Assembly: GCA_000004985.1 (NCBI GenBank)
Contig: GG738851.1
Reading direction: 5' to 3' (one strand)
DNA: 64,000 nucleotides
DNA from: Naegleria gruberi
Lineage: Eukaryota
Shown here: positions 3,188-23,499 of the stretch, one piece after another
Position numbering within the stretch: position 1 is the first letter of the stretch
How the letters are laid out: every line of letters starts with the position of its first letter
Notes under the pieces: generated by a model
Seen by the model: only the letters and a program-made list of their open reading frames with translations
What the model was told of the DNA's origin: nothing
The model's database searches: none
Made by a program: the position numbers and the translations under genes

Positions 3188-3753
3188 TATTAGTTTGAAA
3201 TGGTTTTTTTGTATTATTTTATATCAAAATACATCCAGAAATTTGGCAGATTTTAAACAAAGTTTGAGATTGTCACAATGTTTAAAATCGAATATTTCTA
3301 GAATTACTTTCTTAAAATGTTCATAGTAATGCCTTAATCGGTGCGTATCTAGCAATGCTCGATTTCGATTATCTCCTTGACATACTTTTGTTTTCAACGC
3401 GTGTAAATGGAATAGAAAAAGAGATAGAGAACTTTCTGGGCATGATGTGTTTCATTACAAATTAATCTAAGGAGATTGATATTTAAAGGAATGATGTCAC
3501 ATCATGTCCCATTCGAATACATTTAGACAAACTTATGTACATTTTTGGTTTCGTATTGAGATTTGAATGAGGTTCGAAACACGAATTCAGACCCAACCTA
3601 ATTTGTCCATCGTTTCACGATATTTATCAACAACTTTCCAATACTTAATCTCAACTGCCTTATTTCTTAATTTTCAATAATTGCAATCGATAATAATTCT
3701 ATTTTTAAACCAATTATTCCATTTCAATACAAGACAAATCAATCTTAAAAAAA

Positions 3754-5496
3754 ATGGGAAAAAACTTTCGTAACAAAACATTGCCATCGGCCAATACCAG
3801 TCATTCGATGGCCTCGCCATTGCAAATCCCCTTTTCAGCTCGTACTTCAAATCAAAAGTCGCCAAAACATTATCTCCTTCCTAAACATTATCAAGAGATT
3901 GTCAAGTATTTTGTATCGAAGGAGAATACAAGTGATTTGGCTTTGATCTTGTTGAAAAGGTTATTCTCTCCTTCCGATTGGAAAATGTATTATTTTGATT
4001 ATAAAGAGTGGAATGAAAATGTTACAGAGTGTAGGAAAGATCTGAGAAAGATGATTCAAATGGGAACATTGCAATCACTCTTGAGAGGAAAGTATTTTGT
4101 GGAGGATTTGACTATAGTTCCTGTTGAACAGGTTGAGGAGGAGACACAAATTCCTATTCATGAGAGAGTGTTCGTGAGAAAGCCATACGTTCCGAGGAAG
4201 AAGGAAGAAGAAATAGTTGAGGAGGAACCAGAAACTAAAAAGAAAAAGAAGAGGAAGAATAAGAAGGTTGATCCAGAGGCTGAATTTGAATTGACTGCTG
4301 AGGAATTGGCGCATGATGGAACATTTGAAGGATTTGAAATTATGGGAGAGGAAGACAGACCACCTTTGGATGAAATTATCATGTTGAACGAAAGAAATTT
4401 GAAAAAGGATCCTAAAAAGGATAAAAAGGATAAAAAGAAGGTCACCAAACCAACATCTAAAAAACCTGAGGAAGAGGAGGAAGAAGTTTTCTTCTTTGAT
4501 GATGGAATTCCAGAAAAAGAAATTCCAGTCACTACAATTCATTTGGATTTTAATGCCATCAAGAAGATTTCAAGCTCTACCGAGCTCATTGATTGTGCAG
4601 AATTGGAATCTGTTGTACAAATATCTAAAAAGATGAATACAAAGGAAAATCAAACAACCAAAACAATATTCCAAGTAGTTGAAGGAGATATTTTGGAAGC
4701 AGCATTGGCCTTGAAGAAAAACTCAAAGGTCAATCCACTCGTGCTTGTCAGTGCAAGCCAAAATATCCCAGGTGGTTTATATGATAAGGGAGGAAATACA
4801 CAGGAAGAGGATATGTGCCGAAGAACTTCTCTAGCACTTTGCTCTGCTGATCCATATAGAATATCAGGTCGTACGTGGTTTTATCCATTGCCAGAGTTTG
4901 GAGGAATCTATGTAAACAATTGTCTCGTGATTAGAAAATCAAAATATGAAGGATATGCATTCTTGGAAAAGCCTACCAACATGTCAATGTTCTTATTGAG
5001 TCCTATAATTAATCCTCCAACAGAGAAGAAGAAATTAGTGGCAACAGAAAATTCTGGAGATGCAACTTCTGAGCCAGAATATGAATATTTCCTTCCTGCT
5101 AAACTCACAACCACAATGAAAAAGAAGATTGCCTCCTATTTGGAAGTTGCACTCAGTAAGGGACATGATGCTTTGGTACTGTCTGATTTTGGTTGTGTGA
5201 ATTCACATTCTAATCCTTCCTATCACATTGCCTCACTCTTTAAGGAAGTTCTAATGAGCGACTTGTTTAGAGACAAATTCAAGCATGTCTTATTTGCCAT
5301 TACTCTAGACACTGAACCAGACAGCAGATTGACCAGTATTATTGAAGATGTCGATGAAAGCTCAACAGTCGTCAGACAGGAAAGTTATGAAATTCAAAAG
5401 AAGAACAATCTCACCATCTTTTCTAAAATATTCAACAATAGTGAATCTGCACCAACTGTAGATGAACATTTCAAAAAGATCAAAGAATCATTGTAA
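3754..5496 (+). CDS. Macrodomain-fold protein of the bacterial-type PARG / DUF2263 family, with a long Lys/Glu-rich N-terminal extension
   Basis: The C-terminal half contains LVLVSASQNIPGGLYDKGGNTQEEDMCRRTSLALC. This fits the PARG signature GGG-x6-8-QEE as GG-x8-QEE, and the following EE-x-CR-S-L pattern is typical of DUF2263. The N-terminal part is low-complexity K/E-rich. Confidence 0.55.
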   Translation: MGKNFRNKTLPSANTSHSMASPLQIPFSARTSNQKSPKHYLLPKHYQEIVKYFVSKENTSDLALILLKRLFSPSDWKMYYFDYKEWNENVTECRKDLRKMIQMGTLQSLLRGKYFVEDLTIVPVEQVEEETQIPIHERVFVRKPYVPRKKEEEIVEEEPETKKKKKRKNKKVDPEAEFELTAEELAHDGTFEGFEIMGEEDRPPLDEIIMLNERNLKKDPKKDKKDKKKVTKPTSKKPEEEEEEVFFFDDGIPEKEIPVTTIHLDFNAIKKISSSTELIDCAELESVVQISKKMNTKENQTTKTIFQVVEGDILEAALALKKNSKVNPLVLVSASQNIPGGLYDKGGNTQEEDMCRRTSLALCSADPYRISGRTWFYPLPEFGGIYVNNCLVIRKSKYEGYAFLEKPTNMSMFLLSPIINPPTEKKKLVATENSGDATSEPEYEYFLPAKLTTTMKKKIASYLEVALSKGHDALVLSDFGCVNSHSNPSYHIASLFKEVLMSDLFRDKFKHVLFAITLDTEPDSRLTSIIEDVDESSTVVRQESYEIQKKNNLTIFSKIFNNSESAPTVDEHFKKIKESL

Positions 5497-5558
5497 AATA
5501 ATATCATCCATCATAGTAATTGATGACACACATGTAAAGAATCCTCACACATAAAAAA

Positions 5559-7868
5559 ATGTCTCACTATCTCAGGTCAACACCATTATTGTTGCCCTCT
5601 CTCAACAGCAAACCATCAACACTATTAAAACAATTGGTAGCCAAGGAGGATTCTGCAACATTATATCTTCATCCTCCGAATATTATTACCACAACAACAA
5701 CAGAGAGTGATGCATCCGAAACCCTTCTCGATGTTTACAAAATTAAACAAAAATTGGGTGAAGGATCTTTCGGTCAGGTTTATCTTGCAAAGATAAAATC
5801 GACAAAGGAAAGATTAGCACTCAAGAGAATTGTGACGAATTTGAGTGGAGATGAAACTGAGGATGAGACCGAAAAGATTATTTATGAAAATTTGCAGGAG
5901 TATTATACATTGCGTGATTTGAAAGATCATCCAGCCATTGTGAAGGTAAAGGACGTCTTTCTAATGAAGGACAAAGCATCACAACAGATTGGTCATGTGA
6001 GCTATTCTATGAAATTATATGAACATGGAAGTTTATTCGAATGGATTACTAAAAGAAAGGGAAGTAACAAGAAGATGGATTTTAGAATTTTAAAATCAAT
6101 CATGATTCAATTGTGTCTAGTATTGAAATTTATCCATCAAAAGGGTTTACTTCACAGGTGAGTATTAAAATTATAGAAAAATGGATGTTAATTTACTGTG
6201 TACAGAGATATTAAACCAGCCAATATCTTTATTGATTACTTGAAGACGGAAAAGACCTTCCTTCCAGAGGAATATTTCAAAGAGGAAGAATCTTCAATAG
6301 TTGTAATTTTGGGAGATTTTGGAACTGTTAGAAAGTACAATGAAGGATCTATGGTTCAAACTACAGTTGGATCCCAAATGTACATGTCACCTGAGATTTT
6401 ATATGGTGAAAATTATCAAGTGGATGCAGATGTTTGGTCTCTGGGAGCTTCTCTATTTGAACTTGCTACTTACAAGCCAAAACCAATAGCAATGATGCTC
6501 TACAAGAGAGAAGGTCCCACAATTAAAAAGAATTTGGAGGATGCTCTGCTCTTGAATAATGAATATATCAAGACAGAACAAGATTCTAATGATTGTTTGG
6601 AATTTATCAATTTAATAATGGACATGTTCACTCTGGAAGTTTCTAAAAGACCAACCATTGAAACCTTGCTCTCCTCTCCATGTTTAAAACCTCAATTAGA
6701 TAGAGTACTACTAATCACTTCCCAATACACCTCCCAAATGATTCAGGAAGAGAATGAGCTATTAGTGAAATTGGTAGAAGATTTGAAATACAATGTCACA
6801 TCAACTTCCTCTCAAGGATTGAAAACATTTATGAAAAAGAACCTTCTGGCAACCACAAAGGATAATGATGGCAAAAAGAATAATCTCTTACTTGTGGCAA
6901 GTTGGTGGAGTTCTAACTTGAGAATATTCCCGGTAGCTCCACAAAATGAAAATTCGCCTTTGGAAATATCTAATGTTCCCTACATATTGGAATTGAAATC
7001 AGATATAACCTGTGAACAAATGATGCCAGTAAGTGAGAGTGAGGTCATTCTTGGATTGCAATCTGGAGAAATTGTTAAAATTAGAAGAGAGGGCTCTCAT
7101 TCATTCAAGGAAATTTCCAGATTGAATGCACACAAGCATCGATTGAAATGCTTTAGACAACTCAATGATCAATATTTTGCTTCTGGTGCCTATAACAAAT
7201 CGGTAAAAATTTGGGATCTCACAAACTTGGAATGTGTTCAAACATTTAAACACGAAAGTGGACACGTCTTTGCGTTGGCTAGTACTAACTCATCAAGGAG
7301 TATACAAGAAACGTCCTTGTTCAGTGTTGGAGCAGATATGAGTATTTATGAATGGGATTTTGAAAAGTGTTTACAAAAGAGAGAAAAAGCTCACTCTGAT
7401 GAAATTTACTCCTGTCTCTACAATTCAAACAGTTCAATCCTCTTGACAGGATCTTTCAAGGAACTAAAAGGATGGGACAAGAGACAACATCAACCAATTA
7501 TCAACTTTTCACCTCATTCAAACTATATTAACAAAATTGTTGAAATTGAAAAGAGCTATGACGGACAGGAATTTAGAGATGGAAATCATTTCATTACATG
7601 CTCTAATGATGGATTTATCAAATTGTGGGATGTTAGAAAGTTACCAAGCAATAGCTCCACTTCATCTACCGACCAAGAATGCAAGTCGTTCAAAGTCAAC
7701 CTGGATGCTATCAAGACACTCCATGTTTATTCCAATACTATTTTCTATGGAACTAAGAGAGGTAGGATGGGAACACTTGATTTGAAAACTTTCACATCTA
7801 TCAAAACCTACAATGCCATTAAGGGAGTCGTTGGTGTAGTAGATGTTTCATCCATACAAATGTTGTGA
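5559..7868 (+). CDS. Ser/Thr protein kinase with C-terminal WD40 repeats; two exons joined across a 48-nt intron at 6158..6205
   Basis: The Gly loop is LGEGSFGQVY and the beta3 Lys lies in LALKRI. The catalytic loop LLHR|DIKPANIF is rebuilt only after removing the GTGAGT...TACAG intron, which is phase 2. DFG (ILGDFG), SPE, and the WD motifs SVKIWDL and GFIKLWDV are present. Confidence 0.8.
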
Positions 7869-10509: not shown

Positions 10510-12219
10510 ATGTTTGACAAGCCAAGTAATCTCTGCTCTCAGTCTTTTGATATTGAAAAACAAGTTTGCTTTTCCAACTCCTCTGATACTGATGTGGTCG
10601 ATTTGTTTTGGATTGATTATTCGGGTGCTGAGGTTTTTATTAGTACCATTGCTCCAAAGCAACAAGTTGGACAGAAAACCTTTGCTACTCATCCCTTCCT
10701 GATGAGAAGTTTATTGAGCAGAAAGATTGTGGGCTTGTTTGTGATTGATGAGCAATTGCCCGATCGATCAACATTGAAATATGGTGAAAATAATTATAAT
10801 ACAAGTGGCAACAGTAAAAGTAGTGGTGGAATGATTCCTACACCTGGTGATGCTCCACCTCGTTTGTTTGAAAAGATTACTTATAGAAATAGTATTGTAG
10901 GAAGTCAAGATCAATATTATGGTTTGAAATCAGCAACTGGAACTTGGCCTGCAGAGCTACATGTAAAGAATAGAACTGGACATAATTTGGAGTCTTATTG
11001 GATTGATTTTGAAGGTAATTTGAGAAGTTATGGAATTTTGGATTCTGGAAAGAATTTTGATAGTATGAGTGGACATGGTCATATCTTTCTTTTCAAAACT
11101 CCTGATGGTTCCTATCAGAAGATAATTACTGCCTCATCTGAAAAACCTTCTCAATTCCTCGATCCTGATGAAATTGAAATTACTGCCTCAGTGATAGATT
11201 CACCTTCAGAAACTAGTTGTCACTCTATTCTTGAGAAGCATATTCAAGGAAGGTGTGGACGTGCACTCAAGTTTTTCACTGAACCTCACATTGATCGGAT
11301 CATTTCAGAAATTGAAACCAAACTCAAACAAGAAGGAAAACGATTCATTGATGAAGACTTTTTCCCAGGAGATAATTGGAAGAGAGCTAGTGATTATTTC
11401 AAAAATCAAGCCAGTATTTTCAAAGGTGATATTTCTCCAAAAGCACCAATACAAGGAGGAGCAGGTGATTGTTGGTTAATCCAATCAATGAGTGGAGCAG
11501 CCACCTTACCAGACAAGATTAAGGAAGTATTTTGCAAGTGTGAACATATTGATCCATCATTGGGATTGTTTGTCTTGTCTTTCCATTCAACAGATGGTTC
11601 AAAAATATTCATTCTCTTGGATGATTACTTTCAATTTACATCAACCAATTTTAAATGTTCAAGGAGTAGTACAGTTGGAGAATTGTGGGTTCCGTTAATT
11701 GAGAAGGCATTTGCAAAACTGTGTGGAAGCTTTGAATCCCTTCATCCAGTTGTTGGAAATCATGGTATTAATCCTGCTGAAGTGTTGTTGTACTTATTAA
11801 GCGGCAAAAATGGTAAAAACATTCAATGGTACTCTGCTGAGGGGAAAACTATAATCTCTCAGGGAAAATTCTATCCACTCGTGGAGAGTTTATTGGACAG
11901 TAAAAAGAGCGTACCAGTCTGTACCAGTAATGCTAATACCAAGGAGGGCTATGTTGATGAGTATGGAATTGTTCACTATCATGGATATTCCATGTTGGGT
12001 TATAGAAAATATCCTCAACACGGCATCAATCTTCTCCACATAAGAAATACATGGTCCAAACAGGAATGGAATGGTTTGTGGTCTGATAATTGTGTACAAT
12101 GGGCCAAATATCCTGATATTGCCAGTGAACTGAGAAGTGTTTCAGAAGATGGATGCTTTTGGATATCATATGATGATTTTGTAAATCACTTTTGTGTACT
12201 TTGGTGGAATGAATTTTAA
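10510..12219 (+). CDS. Calpain-like cysteine protease with two N-terminal VHL beta-domain-like repeats
   Basis: The catalytic Cys motif is QGGAGDCWLIQSMSGAA, the His lies in VHYHGYSMLGY and the Asn in IRNTWS. Upstream are two repeats, SNSSDTDVVDLFWIDYSGAEV...THPFLMRS and KNRTGHNLESYWIDFEGNL...GHGHIFLFKT. Both fit the VHL beta pattern N.S...V.L.W.DF.G....Y......H.WLFR. Confidence 0.75.
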   Translation: MFDKPSNLCSQSFDIEKQVCFSNSSDTDVVDLFWIDYSGAEVFISTIAPKQQVGQKTFATHPFLMRSLLSRKIVGLFVIDEQLPDRSTLKYGENNYNTSGNSKSSGGMIPTPGDAPPRLFEKITYRNSIVGSQDQYYGLKSATGTWPAELHVKNRTGHNLESYWIDFEGNLRSYGILDSGKNFDSMSGHGHIFLFKTPDGSYQKIITASSEKPSQFLDPDEIEITASVIDSPSETSCHSILEKHIQGRCGRALKFFTEPHIDRIISEIETKLKQEGKRFIDEDFFPGDNWKRASDYFKNQASIFKGDISPKAPIQGGAGDCWLIQSMSGAATLPDKIKEVFCKCEHIDPSLGLFVLSFHSTDGSKIFILLDDYFQFTSTNFKCSRSSTVGELWVPLIEKAFAKLCGSFESLHPVVGNHGINPAEVLLYLLSGKNGKNIQWYSAEGKTIISQGKFYPLVESLLDSKKSVPVCTSNANTKEGYVDEYGIVHYHGYSMLGYRKYPQHGINLLHIRNTWSKQEWNGLWSDNCVQWAKYPDIASELRSVSEDGCFWISYDDFVNHFCVLWWNEF

Positions 12220-17049: not shown

Positions 17050-17514
17050 ATGCCACCATCATCAAAACAATCATCATCATCGCCATCAGTAGGAAAGAAA
17101 ATCAAGTATTTTCCTCGTGTTGAAAAGGCAGAGCAATTAATCACCAAAGGACATATGGCCCAATTCGGTGCCCTCGTTGGAATGAAAATGAGAGAAGAAT
17201 TAAGAGAACAAATCCGTGAGTACGAATTCGATGTAATTCGAAGACTAATGAAAAAGTCCATTTTGCTGGTAGCCGTAGATGAGGTTGGAAAATCAACAAC
17301 TTCTAATGGCATTTGGAACGTCGATGGCAATACTATGAGAATGTCATTTAGATCAGAATTGTCATACAAGTTGATGGGTGTGTCAAGTAATGACCAAGAG
17401 GATGAAGATTATCACGATGAAGAGGAAGAAGAATCTGAAGTAATAATAGTGAGTGATGATGAAGATTTTGAAAATTATGTTGATGAAGAAGAAATTGAAG
17501 AGGAGGATGAATAA
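17050..17514 (+). CDS. Hypothetical acidic protein with an Asp/Glu-rich C-terminal tail
   Basis: A 154-aa ORF. The acidic tail reads DDEDFENYVDEEEIEEEDE. Confidence 0.45.
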   Translation: MPPSSKQSSSSPSVGKKIKYFPRVEKAEQLITKGHMAQFGALVGMKMREELREQIREYEFDVIRRLMKKSILLVAVDEVGKSTTSNGIWNVDGNTMRMSFRSELSYKLMGVSSNDQEDEDYHDEEEEESEVIIVSDDEDFENYVDEEEIEEEDE

Positions 17515-17862: not shown

Positions 17863-18323
17863 ATGAGATCTGCCGGAGTTGTATGTACTGTTTAATTAGT
17901 TGTAATTCCGTTATTAATTATCATCATCCTTAATATTTTCATCATTGTGGTCATGATACAATTATACAATGAATTTTATCATAAAAAAACCATATCAACA
18001 ACCAATAGGCCTATCTTTTATGGTTATTATGCTGTGTTGGCTTTTGTGGTATTCATAGATTTTATCTGGATTCACTCATTCTCGGAATTGTTAGTTTCTT
18101 AACGTGTGGTATCTTTGGTATTTTGCAGCTAATTGATTTGATTTTGATTCCTGGCATGGTTGATGTATGCAATGCCAAATTTATGCAAAAGACAACAACT
18201 GTTGTTGTTCAACCAGTGCAAACACAAGCAGGTGTAGTTGTTGTACAAAATGCTCAACAACAACAATTCCATTCATCTACTCAACAAGTTGTTACAACAA
18301 CCACAACCACTACCACCAACTAA
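17863..18323 (+). CDS. TM2-domain-like small membrane protein; exon 1 at 17863..17880 (MRSAGV), a 128-nt intron at 17881..18008, and exon 2 at 18009..18323
   Basis: Exon 2 opens immediately after an AATAG acceptor. It encodes AYLLWLLCVGFCGIHRFYLDSLILGIVSFLTCGIFGILQLIDLILIPG, which matches the TM2 core GxHRFYLG...G..QL.T.G..GIW.LID.I. The upstream ATG is followed by a GTATGT donor in phase 0. The ORF track shows only the non-ATG tail starting at 18123. Confidence 0.45.
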
Positions 18324-18560: not shown

Positions 18561-18911
18561 ATGAAAAAGATACTCTTCATTGTTCTGGTTTGCATTCTGG
18601 CTGCCCTATTCTTCAATGCTGATAAAGCTGATGGACAATTAGTGTACAGCTACCGTTATGCATATAGTTACCCTTACTCCTATGGTTACTCGTATCCATA
18701 CTCATATGGCTATTCCTACCCATATAGTTACGGATACTCATATCCATACAGCTATGGTTACTCATATCCATATAGCTATGCTTATTCCTATAGTTATCCT
18801 TACTCATACGGTGGTTATGGTTATCCTTACTCATATGGTGGTTATGGCTACCCTTACTCCTATGGTTACAGTTATCCTTATTCTTATGCTTATTCATACC
18901 GTTATTGGTAA
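18561..18911 (+). CDS. Secreted Tyr/Ser/Pro-rich repeat protein made of YSYPYSYG octapeptide repeats
   Basis: The signal peptide MKKILFIVLVCILAALFFNA is followed by about 12 tandem YSYPYSYG/YSYPYSYA units. Antisense ORFs over the repeat are artefacts. Confidence 0.6.
   Translation: MKKILFIVLVCILAALFFNADKADGQLVYSYRYAYSYPYSYGYSYPYSYGYSYPYSYGYSYPYSYGYSYPYSYAYSYSYPYSYGGYGYPYSYGGYGYPYSYGYSYPYSYAYSYRYW
18643..18900 (+). repeat. Coding tandem repeat with a roughly 24-nt unit, TAYCCWTACTCNTATGGNTACTCN, encoding YSYPYSYG
   Basis: Direct tandem periodicity is visible in both the DNA and the protein. The boundaries are approximate. Confidence 0.7.
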
Positions 18912-19540
18912 AGAAACCAATCAATGTAATTTTTTCGAAACTCTTAGTGAGACCTTGTGAGACCATCATATACCAATAAAAAAAATTAATTTGTGTGAAA
19001 CAACAATCGCTTCATTTTCAATTATTGGACTAAACATGGACCGTCCAATATGAAGTCGACATTCTGTCAAAATTATGCAAAGATAAAAGTGGACCAAATT
19101 GTGATATCAAGGCATTTTCCATATATCAATCGAAACCGATCATTTTCTATTCTGTTACGTTGTGATTACAGTAAAATGCAAAGCTCTATTTTAGATAGGA
19201 TAAACCTTTCAAATTTCCTATGGTGGTCTTGTCTTTCTTGTGAATGGAACAACAAAATTCATCGTTGCATTCAGGGGTTTATTCACAACAACGTTGAACA
19301 CTAGTTTTGGCAAAATGAAAATTTGTGGATTAGGAAGGAAATATTTCCAACTTTTGAATTGGAAAAGATAACCAACTAGATTGAGAATTTTGTAAAGATA
19401 ACACTTCCAATTCAATAACTCCCTTCATGGAAAATGAATTCAATAATTCAATTCCCCAACCTGATCATTTTCCATTTTTAGAAAATATTCAAATAGATTT
19501 TTCCAAAAACGAAACTTAACATTATTCGAAAAAAAATCAA

Positions 19541-20692
19541 ATGAAACAAAAACTACCTTCCAACATTAAAGTACTCATACTTTCTCTCCTTCTGGTCCTA
19601 CTACTCTACTGTAATCTTTCACATTCGGCCAGTTTACGTGGAGAATCTAGTACGAATCCAACCGATTCAAATCCGAAATCACCATTAGCTCCAGTTCAAG
19701 GTGGCGCCTACATTATCAGTAGCCAACAACCATCCACAGCCACACAGCAACAACCTACTCAAGGATCTGTCACTCAACAAACTCAAATCGATCCAAATTC
19801 TCAAAACCAAGTCGTGTCCACAACCTCGTATCCAGCATCTGCAAATCCAACTTCGATTACGGTTATTTATCCGAGTGGAGCTACTCCTAGTAGTCAAAAT
19901 CCAGTAATTCCTAGTCAACCTACTCAGACACAACCTACACAACCTACTCAGACGCAACCAACACAACCAAGTCAACCATTGCCACAGCCACAGCCACAAC
20001 CAATTCCAAATCAAAATCAACAACAATCATATCCACAATATTCACAACAAAGTACCTATAGTCAATATACAACTGGTCAACCACAACAACAGCAACAACA
20101 ACCTTATTATGGAAATAATCAACAACAACAACCTGTCTATTCACAACAACCAGTTTATAGTCAACCACAACAACAACAACAACCTTATTATGGAAATACT
20201 CAATATGCTCCACAACAATCTTATCCTCAAAATCAATATGTCCAACAGCAACCAGTGTATAGCCAACCAGTCCAACAACAACAACAACCTTATTATACTT
20301 CATCACCTCAATATGCTCCTGTCCAGAGTGGTCAACCAGCTTATTATCCACAAACACAACAGCCATACTATGGAAACACTCAATATGTCCAACAACAGCC
20401 TCAATATGTTCCACAAACTCAATATGTCCAACAACCTTACAATGGTGGTGCTCAATATTATTATCCACAACAATCTTATCCTCAAACTCAATATGTCCAA
20501 CAACCATACTATGGAACAACTGGTTATGCTGCACAACCATATGTATCGGGTGGATATCCTGCAACCACAGCTGTTGCGCCTGGCTATGGCTATGCTGCTC
20601 CTGCTGCAACTGCTGGATATGGTTATGCAGCTCCTGCAGTTGCCTATCAACCACAAGCTGTTTATTCTTCCTATCCTGCTTATTACTATTAG
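19541..20692 (+). CDS. Secreted Gln/Pro/Tyr-rich low-complexity protein, possibly extracellular matrix or wall protein
   Basis: The signal peptide is MKQKLPSNIKVLILSLLLVLLLYCNLSHSAS. PTQTQ repeats follow, then repeated QQQPYYGN(T)QY / QQPVYSQ units, and a Gly/Ala/Tyr-rich tail. It lies next to the YSY-repeat gene. Confidence 0.6.
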   Translation: MKQKLPSNIKVLILSLLLVLLLYCNLSHSASLRGESSTNPTDSNPKSPLAPVQGGAYIISSQQPSTATQQQPTQGSVTQQTQIDPNSQNQVVSTTSYPASANPTSITVIYPSGATPSSQNPVIPSQPTQTQPTQPTQTQPTQPSQPLPQPQPQPIPNQNQQQSYPQYSQQSTYSQYTTGQPQQQQQQPYYGNNQQQQPVYSQQPVYSQPQQQQQPYYGNTQYAPQQSYPQNQYVQQQPVYSQPVQQQQQPYYTSSPQYAPVQSGQPAYYPQTQQPYYGNTQYVQQQPQYVPQTQYVQQPYNGGAQYYYPQQSYPQTQYVQQPYYGTTGYAAQPYVSGGYPATTAVAPGYGYAAPAATAGYGYAAPAVAYQPQAVYSSYPAYYY

Positions 20693-20795
20693 ACAATGAT
20701 TTGAAAAAATGTAAATTAGATTTGAAATTGTAAAATTGTACAGAGAGAAGTGAAATTCAATGGATTTTGTGTGAGAAATAAAAAGAGTTTGTTTT

Positions 20796-22712
20796 TTATT
20801 CCTTCAATTCAATTTCATTCCTATGTTCCTCTTCAAGGATTGGTGTTTCATTGTGATGAATGGTTGTTGGTTCGGCTGCTGCATCAAAGTGAAGTTCATG
20901 AGCTGGTTCAATTTGATCATGAATTGGAACTGGTTGACCATTTCCTGTATCCTGAGCACGAGACAATCTAACACAGAAAATCATGAATGAAGATAGTACT
21001 TGGAGTGATGCACCAAGAGCGTACAATAACAGGTAGCCCATTCCAACAACATCTGGTGCAATAGCATCACCAATTAAAATGATCAATCCTCCCAAAGGTA
21101 CACCCAATAATTCAGGAACTGTACCAGAAATATTCCACAAGGCCAAATCCTTTCCAGAATCATCTTTGGTAATCAGAACTGAATTTACAAGTGACAAGTC
21201 CACACTAATAAATGATCCAATACCCAAACCATAGAGAATGGAGCAACACAGAATCATTACACTGTAAGATCTGAAAATGATTAAAATAATACTGGCAATA
21301 CCACAGCCCAAGGCACCAGCACTGTACACATATCTTCTTCCAATAAGCCCGGCTATTTTTTGTGCAAATAATGCACTAACAAATGTAAAAGCGAAAACAA
21401 TTCCAAGGAATAAACTCAAAGCTTCCTCATTATTGGTTGGGAATTTGTTGGTCAAGATGAAATTATATGGAGTCAAAACTTCTTGAATAAAATAGAAAAA
21501 GTAATTTCTGGCAGCAGCATTTGTCAATTGAATAGTGAAACGAGTAATAAAAACCCAAGTAAAATTCCTATTCTTGAATGGAACCAAAAATGCAAGAGCA
21601 TAATTGAGGGCTCTCTTGTAGAATCGTGGTTTTGGTGCTTCTTGTGCAGGTTCTGTAGTGAGTGGAACGTCTTCAAATTCTCCTGGTTTCTTGGCAGCTT
21701 CCTTTTCAATTTGTTTGACCTTTGTCTTTCTAAGCTCTCTATGGAAGAGCATGAGAGGTACACAAACAATTGAACACAGAGCTGCATATCCCAAACATAC
21801 CCAAATCAAATCAACATGACCAATTATCACACCTCCCAAAACAACTCCCAACATGACTCCAATCAAAGTAAAAACACCAACAAGTGCTGAAACCAAATTG
21901 ATTTGTTCTTGTGGGAACAAATCTGTTACCATTGCAGTCACAATAGCTTGTGAAGTGACATATCCACATTTTCCGATACACAGCACAGCTCCATACATGA
22001 CAAATATGAAAACATAATACTGTGGAAACTGTGTATGCATCATTGAACAAATAGATTGCAGAATAATCATCAATGCCCACACCAGAGTAGTAACCACAAC
22101 AATTGGAATACGTGATTTCCTACCAATCCTATCAGAAATATTACCAACTATGGGACTAACAATCACTCCGATAACTGTTGCAATAGAAACAACAATACTC
22201 AAGTAGAGTTCCTTATTTTCTGATCCCAACATTTGAACGACAAGTTTTGGCAATAACAATCCAAGTACAAACGAACTTGTTGAACCACTTCCTATATAAT
22301 ATATAGAATATCCAATTGTTTTGTAGAGTGGTTGTCTTTGTAATCCATCATGATGAAGATTTTGTGGAACTTTCTCATGATGTTGACTATCAATTGTGTT
22401 GTTATCATCATTGTGAGGAGTTGATGGTGTATCTAATCTTGCCAATTCCTCTCCCATTACATCTAACATGGGTTTTGCAATGGTTCTCTCTGGATGTTTA
22501 ATGTCTATTGGTTCCAAGTGAAACGAGGAGGTCATTGGATTGTATTCGGTCAGAATGCCAATGCCTTCATTAGAATGATGGCTATGAGAAGAAACGTGGG
22601 AGGAGAAGGAAGCAGTATGGGCTGATGTAGGTGTTTTCTGTTGTTGTTGTTGTTGTATTGGATGAGAGGCGATATCTTCATTGTGAGGATTCCCTGATGA
22701 TGATAGATTCAT
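20796..22712 (-). CDS. Major facilitator superfamily (MFS) transporter
   Basis: About 12 predicted TM helices. The MFS signature GNISDRIGRK lies in the TM2-TM3 loop, and the protein has hydrophilic termini. Confidence 0.7.
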   Translation of the reverse strand: MNLSSSGNPHNEDIASHPIQQQQQQKTPTSAHTASFSSHVSSHSHHSNEGIGILTEYNPMTSSFHLEPIDIKHPERTIAKPMLDVMGEELARLDTPSTPHNDDNNTIDSQHHEKVPQNLHHDGLQRQPLYKTIGYSIYYIGSGSTSSFVLGLLLPKLVVQMLGSENKELYLSIVVSIATVIGVIVSPIVGNISDRIGRKSRIPIVVVTTLVWALMIILQSICSMMHTQFPQYYVFIFVMYGAVLCIGKCGYVTSQAIVTAMVTDLFPQEQINLVSALVGVFTLIGVMLGVVLGGVIIGHVDLIWVCLGYAALCSIVCVPLMLFHRELRKTKVKQIEKEAAKKPGEFEDVPLTTEPAQEAPKPRFYKRALNYALAFLVPFKNRNFTWVFITRFTIQLTNAAARNYFFYFIQEVLTPYNFILTNKFPTNNEEALSLFLGIVFAFTFVSALFAQKIAGLIGRRYVYSAGALGCGIASIILIIFRSYSVMILCCSILYGLGIGSFISVDLSLVNSVLITKDDSGKDLALWNISGTVPELLGVPLGGLIILIGDAIAPDVVGMGYLLLYALGASLQVLSSFMIFCVRLSRAQDTGNGQPVPIHDQIEPAHELHFDAAAEPTTIHHNETPILEEEHRNEIELKE

Positions 22713-23499
22713 TGTATTTGTATTTGTATTATATATAATAGATGATGAAACTTTTTGTATTTACACTGAGAAAATAATTTGAAATTCAATTATCCAATAT
22801 ATAAATCGGTACTATCAGTACTAGTAGTAGTTAAATAAAATCGCAATATAGTCTAATTCTTATTAAATATATAATAATTATATATAATTAATTGTTCTAG
22901 ATGAAAAGATGGTCGGGATCAATGATGATGGTTCCTCCTTTTTTTAAAGCTTTGTCTAGAGAATTAATTCTTCCGTGATGAACCAACAAAATAATGAACA
23001 GCAAGGATCTTGTTGACTTCCAACTGTTATTCAATATTGAATCTTTTTGCTAATTCTTTCGAGAAGATGATTTGAACTCAATATTCTCTCCAACAAGAAT
23101 CCAATTCGATAATTTCTTTTTTACCTCAAAAAATGAAGGAATTAATATCCGCTATGAATCCGCTTTGAACCTCGAAGTGCAAAGTAAGCCTTGGATGAAA
23201 GAGTTTGATGAAGAAGAATAAAATCCAAGCTGCTCAAGGTTGTGTTTTGGTTGGTGTCGCTTCCTCGTAGTGAGCAAAGATCAGAGAGGTGTTATTACTT
23301 ATGTTTGGAGGAAGGAGTAATAGAGAGGGTTACACTGTGATGGTTTGTAACGGAATTTGGAAAGATGTTGGAAGATGAATCAAGACCAAATGAACGAATA
23401 GTTTAATGTCAATCATGTGTAAATGAATATTGTAAAATTTAGTTAAAGATCATCTAATTTAATTAAGGCAGAATTATTCAGATTTTTAATTATTATTAT

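Follow-up and report, generated by a model that had tools for sequence, protein, structure and literature searches.

What are the two adjacent, tyrosine-rich open reading frames (ORFs) on contig GG738851.1 of Naegleria gruberi (assembly GCA_000004985.1), and what might their products build? The pair lies within the 64,000-nucleotide (nt) stretch of DNA analyzed here (the window), the source of which was identified as N. gruberi NEG-M by exact protein look-up, with flanking ORFs matching NEG-M proteins exactly. ORF1 (18561 to 18911, plus strand; stop codon TAA, 18909 to 18911) is intronless and encodes a Tyr/Ser/Gly/Pro repeat protein of 116 amino acids (aa), and ORF2 (19541 to 20692, plus strand; stop codon TAG, 20690 to 20692), also intronless, encodes a Q/P/Y/S/T-rich protein of 383 aa. 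An adjacent, same-strand pair encoding proteins of extreme composition had been proposed from the sequence (the original prediction), and both ORFs were found on the plus strand exactly there. Our best explanation, held tentatively at a little below an even chance, is that they are intronless, independent, lineage-restricted N. gruberi genes for secreted, Tyr-rich extracellular structural or cement material.

The composition of both proteins is indeed extreme: no other ORF of the window is as rich in Tyr. Tyr accounts for 37% of ORF1 and 12.8% of ORF2, against a median of 3.9% (51 window ORFs of at least 100 aa), and the maximum Tyr count per 60-residue stretch is 30 in ORF1, 15 in ORF2, and at most 9 in every other window ORF.

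The original prediction also took the pair to be two separate protein-coding genes, which was borne out by synonymous scrambling within ORF1 and by a strain comparison of ORF2. Four ORF1 units with the identical amino acid sequence YSYPYSYG differ from one another at 5 to 10 of 24 nt (mean, 7.8; mean nt identity, 67%), and all of these differences are synonymous. All six Ser codons are used in ORF1, switches between AGY and TCN included, and the Tyr codons are divided 25:18 (TAT:TAC). The ORF1 repeat is conserved as protein, not as DNA. ORF2 was compared with an environmental metagenome contig (L001; ENA ERZ929261) that is 98.2% identical to window positions 19258 to 22844 and keeps the gene intact as a 385-aa ORF. 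The two versions of ORF2 are separated by four indels, all multiples of three (6, 6, 3, and 9 nt, the 9-nt change being an in-frame deletion in L001 within the A/G/Y/P tail), with intergenic indels of 5, 3, 1, and 4 nt; taken alone, the in-frame indels are weak support, because three of the four sit in CAA runs. In the predicted mature part of ORF2, seven of nine substitutions are synonymous, against 23% expected (binomial P = 7e-4), and the overall ratio of nonsynonymous to synonymous change (pN/pS) is about 0.25. Four of the six nonsynonymous changes fall in the signal peptide (Q3R, P6S, N8S, and I13V) and leave its basic n-region and hydrophobic core preserved.

The GC content of both ORFs, overall and at third codon positions (GC3), resembles that of neighboring genes. 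An AATAAA hexamer, possibly a polyadenylation signal, follows each stop codon (18975 to 18980, plus strand, 64 nt past ORF1; 20777 to 20782, plus strand, 85 nt past ORF2), which is weak support for a gene because at least one such hexamer per 100 nt is expected by chance with a frequency of about 0.09 in each case. The repeats also keep other frames open (18613 to 18969, minus strand; 19944 to 20696, minus strand, 250 aa; 20109 to 20699, plus strand). With several frames open over the repeats as ORFs of 100 to 250 aa, ORF length alone is therefore no proof of coding, and the other-frame ORFs were rejected as genes, being by-products of stop-poor repeats without the coding signatures seen in ORF1 and ORF2. 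We regard ORF1 and ORF2 as almost certainly real protein-coding genes.

The ORF1 product begins with MKKILFIVLVCILAALFFNADKADG, followed by QLVYSYRYA and the repeat array. Its predicted signal peptide (18561 to 18635, plus strand; residues 1 to 25) consists of the n-region MKK, the 15-residue core ILFIVLVCILAALFF, and the c-region NADKADG. By the −3/−1 rule, cleavage is likely after A-D-G, between G25 and Q26, which would leave an N-terminal Gln and a mature N-terminus of QLVYSYR…. The alternating Y-x array (18645 to 18908, plus strand; residues 29 to 116) runs from YSYRYA through nine YSYPYSYG-type units of 8 to 10 residues each to a final YSYRYW. Four of the units are perfect and five are close variants (YSYPYSYAYS, YSYPYSYGG, YGYPYSYGG, YGYPYSYG, and the terminal YSYPYSYAYSYRYW); its earlier description as a nearly perfect (YSYPYSYG)n array was a fair one. 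The predicted mature protein contains 43 Tyr among 91 residues (47%) in strict Y-x alternation, with 40 Y-x-Y triplets and no YY. Only one charged residue and no Cys occur past residue 35 of ORF1. AlphaFold2 placed a confident helix at residues 2 to 33 and gave residues 36 to 116 a predicted local distance difference test score (pLDDT) below 50; the repeat part is predicted to be intrinsically disordered. Tandem Repeats Finder reported arrays of 24/27 nt in ORF1 and one of 24 nt in ORF2.

The ORF2 product starts with the signal-peptide-like segment MKQKLPSNIKVLILSLLLVLLLYCNLSHS. The predicted signal peptide (19541 to 19627, plus strand; residues 1 to 29) comprises a basic n-region, MKQKLPSNIK, the core VLILSLLLVLLLY, and the c-region CNLSHS, and the same rule makes cleavage likely after S-H-S, between S29 and A30. 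The predicted mature chain opens with GESSTNPTDSNPK and is about 354 aa long. Segment-by-segment reading upheld the proposed succession of PTQTQ repeats, then QQ-PYYG/QPVYSQ-type repeats, and then a G/A/Y tail. The first mature segment is an S/T/P/Q-rich, mucin-like region (19628 to 19942, plus strand; residues 30 to 134; S, 17%; Q, 16%; T, 14%; P, 14%), by its composition a plausible candidate for an O-glycosylated stalk or spacer. It is followed by PTQ(TQ) and PQ repeats (19913 to 20026, plus strand; residues about 125 to 162), by a Q/Y/P-rich repeat domain (20027 to 20575, plus strand; residues 163 to 345, 183 residues; 19% Tyr and 33% Gln) with four copies of QQPYYG and three each of TQYVQQ, QPVYSQ, and QSYPQ, and by an A/G/Y/P tail (20576 to 20689, plus strand; residues 346 to 383, 38 residues; 26% Tyr and 32% Ala) with two copies of GYGYAAPA and the end PAYYY. 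Past residue 35, ORF2 has three charged residues and no Cys.

The N-termini of both proteins show a basic n-region, a hydrophobic core of 13 to 15 residues, and a polar c-region with small residues at −3 and −1. The signal-peptide test was a crude home-made filter, which passed 5 of 51 long window ORFs, ORF1 and ORF2 among them; together with hydropathy and anatomy and, for ORF1, the AlphaFold helix, it agreed with the signal-peptide-like N-termini of the original prediction. By sequence and hydropathy profile, no further hydrophobic segment occurs in either protein, and neither C-terminus is hydrophobic. Judged from these features, both products are likely to enter the secretory pathway.

Relatives of ORF2 were sought with a word-indexed search and an exhaustive phmmer search against 1.84 billion representatives, and no homologue was returned (0 phmmer hits). 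As a positive control, the 385-aa L001 variant would score 711 bits, so the negative is real for the content of the library; the library is incomplete, as this variant is absent from it. A Joint Genome Institute (JGI) metagenome scan with ORF2 found no match, Pfam searches with ORF1 and ORF2 returned nothing below E = 0.1, and PDB searches gave chance-level matches only. Homology searches with ORF1 and ORF2 returned zero Naegleria proteins, and the suggestion of paralogue arrays elsewhere in the genome gained nothing from them, with no annotated paralogue found. The exact products of ORF1 and ORF2 are absent from a 15-billion-protein collection that contains both flanking N. gruberi proteins. 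They are also absent from a gene-position collection; the same index lacks the N. gruberi MFS transporter gene that neighbors ORF2 and is therefore uninformative on annotation status. The reference gene models appear to lack both Tyr-rich genes.

With ORF1, phmmer returned 22 weak matches among 5.8 billion clusters (P0004 to P0025; E values of 2e-7 to 7e-3), resting on the repeats alone. Nearly all are 80 to 180 aa long, and those inspected mostly combine a bacterial-type signal peptide with a repeat of the same kind (e.g., …YSYPYSYGYSAPYSYGYSYPY…). Scanning the JGI metagenomes with ORF1 yielded a single bacterial contig, from soil (L004; tblastn, 68% identity over 68 residues), a scan of a bacterial genome collection gave no confirmed match, and a degenerate DNA pattern for YPYSYGYSYPYSY had one match. 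YSYPYSYG(G) arrays are carried by L004, which contains the exact 9-mer unit YSYPYSYGG, and by an uncultured bacterium (L005). Like ORF1, the bacterial YSYPYSYG-type proteins (L004, 20 to 337 and 422 to 781; L005, 5226 to 5597; L007, 5001 to 5327) are about 95 to 125 aa long, carry repeated Y-S-Y-P-Y-S-Y-G(G) units as well as an N-terminal signal peptide, and often have a second Tyr-rich secreted gene adjacent. Unlike ORF1, they stand in high-GC or unrelated gene contexts, and in many of them the C-terminus is extended by a charged His/Arg/Glu-rich or a Cys-containing stretch. When BLASTP was adjusted for composition, ORF1 did not align with L004 422 to 778 and matched L005 over only 23 residues (E = 0.055), and no similarity to the bacterial look-alikes was detected beyond the repeats. 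We take the likeness to be convergent; these sequences do not allow homology or horizontal transfer to be demonstrated. A recent horizontal transfer of ORF1 or ORF2 is unsupported by base composition, GC and GC3 being native.

The bacterial loci have features of their own. Adjacent pairs of small, Tyr-rich, secreted-type proteins are encoded on the plus strand at 20 to 337 and 422 to 781 of L004 and at 5001 to 5327 and 5541 to 5879 of L007. The 119-aa L004 protein has FRFRRFDRDD repeats ahead of a GYPYSY array and ends in YRRW, where ORF1 ends in YRYW. In L005 (bin-2248), a 123-aa signal-peptide protein with YSYPYSYG repeats (5226 to 5597, plus strand) is followed by a second signal-peptide protein, of 264 aa, which combines a Tyr/Gly/Ser patch with long (PVVNPVVA)n repeats (5734 to 6528, plus strand), a pair that mirrors the Naegleria pair and lies between a GT2 processive-type membrane glycosyltransferase (3399 to 4754, minus strand) and an extracytoplasmic function (ECF) sigma factor (6982 to 7485). 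Of five bacterial contexts examined, three (L004, L005, and L007) had a second Tyr-rich secreted-type gene next door. A recurrent link to a polysaccharide synthase was considered and rejected, as one is present in L005 only and not in L006, L007, or L008.

Under our preferred explanation, the signal peptide would be cleaved and each product released as an uncharged, Cys-free, disordered, Tyr-rich low-complexity polypeptide. ORF1 would yield a mature protein of about 91 aa, and ORF2 one of about 354 aa, probably with an O-glycosylated stalk ahead of the Q/Y/P and A/G/Y repeats. Cohesion would have to come from the tyrosines, because the absence of Cys and near absence of charge leave no disulfides or salt bridges; it could arise by oxidative Tyr-Tyr crosslinking, by aromatic and hydrogen-bond self-association of the FUS-like [S/G]Y[S/G] kind, and/or by stacking of Tyr rings on wall polysaccharide. 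By analogy with coccidian oocyst walls, the resting cyst wall or its pore plugs would be the most likely site. That the products form extracellular matrix or cement we hold to be slightly favored; that they belong to the cyst wall specifically is possible but doubtful, the stage and the Tyr chemistry both being argued from analogy. A bolder version, in which the pair would supply the first structural proteins for the cyst wall or pore plug of Naegleria, the ORF1 array acting as a Cys-free, charge-free "tyrosine zipper" cement, crosslinked or polysaccharide-stacked, and the paired design having arisen independently in soil bacteria, is unlikely as a whole. The predicted mature chains contain few Arg or Lys residues, all close to the ends (2 Arg and 0 Lys in ORF1, one of each in ORF2), and trypsin would release no more than tiny terminal peptides and fragments of 82 and 337 residues; because trypsin sites are so scarce, a standard proteomic workflow would overlook both proteins, even with their sequences in the searched database.

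Several observations weigh against a cyst-wall or matrix role. Nothing in this analysis ties ORF1 or ORF2 to encystment, and the literature searches made turned up nothing about cyst-wall proteins, dityrosine, or autofluorescence in Naegleria. Nearby genes include neither a wall-synthesis gene nor one for a crosslinking enzyme such as a peroxidase, laccase, or tyrosinase; the neighbors encode a TM2-domain protein and the MFS transporter. As a separate point, co-regulation, which the original prediction read from the adjacency of the genes, found no support, k-mers common to the two upstream regions being at chance level. No orthologue of ORF1 or ORF2 was found among annotated proteins of N. 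fowleri, N. lovaniensis, or Willaertia. The MFS neighbor has orthologues in all three, and for N. lovaniensis (L002) and Willaertia (L009) the flanks of these orthologues contain no Tyr-rich ORF out to about 10 kb; in N. lovaniensis, where the transporter has two copies, none occurs within 22 kb. The pair is therefore specific to the N. gruberi lineage, relocated, or diverged past recognition. Missing orthologues would be odd for a core cyst-wall component, because every Naegleria species encysts, although low-complexity, fast-evolving genes may escape detection or lie elsewhere in relatives.

Among the alternatives, the most basic is that the two ORFs are not genes at all, being chance stop-free ORFs in simple-sequence DNA. 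The several frames held open by the repeats, and the absence of either product from the annotated proteome, would fit this, but the coding signatures contradict it: divergence among ORF1 units is purely synonymous, ORF2 differs between strains by a synonymous excess and in-frame indels only, and in both ORFs an ATG leads into a signal-peptide-like segment. We strongly disfavor this reading and consider it barely tenable. If the genes are real, their N-termini might still be uncleaved signal anchors, making the products type II membrane proteins with Tyr-rich ectodomains that serve as glycocalyx. Each protein does have a lone N-terminal hydrophobic segment preceded by basic residues, and the AlphaFold helix of ORF1 reaches residue 33; against this, the cores of 13 to 15 residues are short for a membrane span, and a polar c-region with small −3/−1 residues is, by the rules for signal peptides, the mark of the cleaved type. 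We judge a signal anchor improbable. A question of origin, compatible with the other readings, is whether ORF1 is a true homologue of the bacterial YSYPYSYG proteins, acquired by horizontal transfer from prey bacteria and sharing their function. The 22 weak matches, nearly all small proteins and, where inspected, mostly with a bacterial-type signal peptide and the same repeat, the 68% tblastn identity over 68 residues, the exact YSYPYSYGG and the neighboring YRRW end in L004, the adjacent bacterial pairs, and the lack of an ORF1-like protein among annotated Naegleria proteins all lean this way. Composition-adjusted BLASTP was blank outside the repeats, base composition (GC and GC3) is native, the bacterial genes stand in varied contexts, and short Tyr/Gly/Ser/Pro repeats converge easily; on balance, bacterial ancestry seems quite improbable.

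Two further alternatives accept secreted-type Tyr-rich proteins and assign them elsewhere. One is a surface coat of the trophozoite or flagellate stage, an adhesive or trail on the substrate, or a glue for capturing prey. The protein anatomy is equally compatible with this, the mucin-like S/T/P-rich stalk and sticky Tyr-rich repeats of ORF2 would suit it, and a trait tied to the ecology of one species would explain the lack of conservation in other Naegleria and in Willaertia, which also encyst, more readily than a core wall component would, but neither protein has a membrane anchor or glycosylphosphatidylinositol (GPI)-type C-terminus to hold it at the cell surface; we rate it as unlikely. 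The other places the products in condensates or protein bodies retained in the endoplasmic reticulum (ER), a prolamin-like Tyr/Gln store of nitrogen or aromatics for encystment or starvation. ORF2, with Q/P/Y repeats behind a signal peptide, does resemble cereal prolamins and high-molecular-weight (HMW) glutenins in composition. The C-termini (…PAYYY and …YRYW) lack an ER-retention motif, however, the Cys that stabilizes prolamin bodies is missing, and we know of no such storage system in amoebae, which leaves a storage role very improbable. Secreted extracellular structural or cement material remains our preferred explanation for the pair.

The locus around the pair contains better-recognized genes. 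On the ORF1 side lie the flanking protein XP_002681000/D2V3U6 (17050 to 17514) and a two-exon TM2-domain gene (17864 to 18323, plus strand) just upstream of ORF1; on the other side lies the MFS transporter XP_002681162/D2V3U8 (20796 to 22712). Both accessioned proteins match N. gruberi NEG-M exactly. The TM2-domain gene has exon 1 at 17864 to 17881 (MRSAGV), a 127-nt intron at 17882 to 18008 (GTATGT…AG), and exon 2 at 18009 to 18323. Its spliced product of 110 aa contains GIHRFYL, matches Pfam TM2 (PF05154; E = 4e-13), and has at its end a Q/V/T-rich tail that includes a T8 run; D2V3U7, the sole accession between the flanking two, is probably this product. ORF2 and the MFS gene are convergent, with stop codons 103 nt apart (20693 to 20795), so close that their 3′ untranslated regions must abut or overlap. 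Farther off, an ORF at 10510 to 12219 (plus strand) joins an N-terminal VHL beta domain (PF01847; E = 2e-9) to a calpain-type cysteine protease domain (PF00648; E = 9e-42), an unusual pairing.

The MFS orthologues yielded observations of their own. In N. lovaniensis (PYSW02000020.1; L002), a second MFS copy lies at 4033 to 5891 (plus strand), 4 kb upstream of the annotated copy, and is nearer to the N. gruberi gene (69.5%, versus 62.7% for the annotated copy); the genes called over it all lie on the other strand and lack Pfam domains, pointing to misannotation. A contig from another Naegleria-like organism (L003; Logan SRR15442445) carries an MFS orthologue at 3826 to 5915 (65% identity), split into two ORFs (the first ending at 5544 and the second starting at 5610), pointing to a short intron or frameshift that N. 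gruberi lacks. This contig ends about 150 nt past the MFS gene and gives no synteny information.

The cyst lets Naegleria, the pathogen N. fowleri included, survive drying and disinfection. No cyst-wall protein described for the genus came up in literature searches, and ORF1 and ORF2 would, by analogy, be concrete and good candidates. Proteins of this kind can stay invisible in three ways, being missing from gene models, without homologues, and almost free of trypsin sites. Should ORF1 and ORF2 instead form a secreted glue or coat peculiar to the species, they would exemplify rapidly evolving orphan low-complexity genes and a striking convergence with rare bacterial YSYPYSYG-type proteins. Under either reading, the practical gain is modest until expression is known.

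Tyr-rich wall proteins of coccidia include Eimeria GAM56/GAM82, EtSWP1, and the Toxoplasma Tyr-rich wall proteins. One account (PMC4776368) describes crosslinked Tyr-rich proteins that build coccidian oocyst and sporocyst walls, with hardening by oxidative crosslinking into dityrosine. Secreted, Tyr-rich, and part of the resting-stage wall of a protist, these proteins are the closest functional analogy to the role proposed for ORF1 and ORF2, both of which are predicted to be secretory proteins with Tyr-rich regions (up to 26% Tyr in ORF2 segments). No homology to coccidian wall proteins was detected (0 phmmer hits for ORF2, no apicomplexan protein in the ORF1 search, and no Pfam domain). By comparison, the Tyr content of ORF1 and ORF2 is far higher, ORF1 is strictly periodic, and the organisms belong to different supergroups, Naegleria to Discoba and coccidia to Alveolata.

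Insect chorion, schistosome eggshell, and plant extensin are also Tyr-crosslinked matrices; Y-x-Y is the isodityrosine crosslinking motif of extensins, and G/Y-rich repeats are crosslinked by peroxidases. As in ORF1 and ORF2, plant extensins, glycine-rich wall proteins, chorion, and eggshell proteins place low-complexity repeats after a signal peptide. ORF1 has 40 Y-x-Y triplets behind its predicted signal peptide, which would be candidate crosslinking sites, and neither ORF1 nor ORF2 contains the SPPP(P) motif of extensin Ser-Pro(3-5) blocks. In contrast to extensins, ORF1 and ORF2 are listed as being without Lys or His; they have far fewer Gly than glycine-rich proteins, and they show no homology to these matrix proteins. 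Prion-like and FUS-type [G/S]Y[G/S] and Q/Y-rich domains, and the Q/P/Y repeats of HMW glutenins, have composition and predicted disorder in common with ORF1 and ORF2, and self-association through Tyr is to be expected. FUS-type domains, however, are cytosolic or nuclear and sit within larger folded proteins, whereas the repeats of ORF1 and ORF2 stand alone after a secretion signal. Glutenins carry Cys-bearing end domains, whereas the ORF1 and ORF2 repeats have no Cys; in ORF2, the prolamin/HMW-glutenin terminal domains are absent, with no Cys past residue 35, no nonrepetitive end domains, and no Pfam match. ORF1 and ORF2 are best described as sequence-orphan members of the secreted, Tyr-rich, low-complexity structural proteins, a kind known from coccidia, plants, insects, and flatworms, and are set apart by the extreme, strictly alternating Tyr array of ORF1, Cys-free and nearly chargeless chains, absence from the annotation, and look-alike pairs in bacteria.

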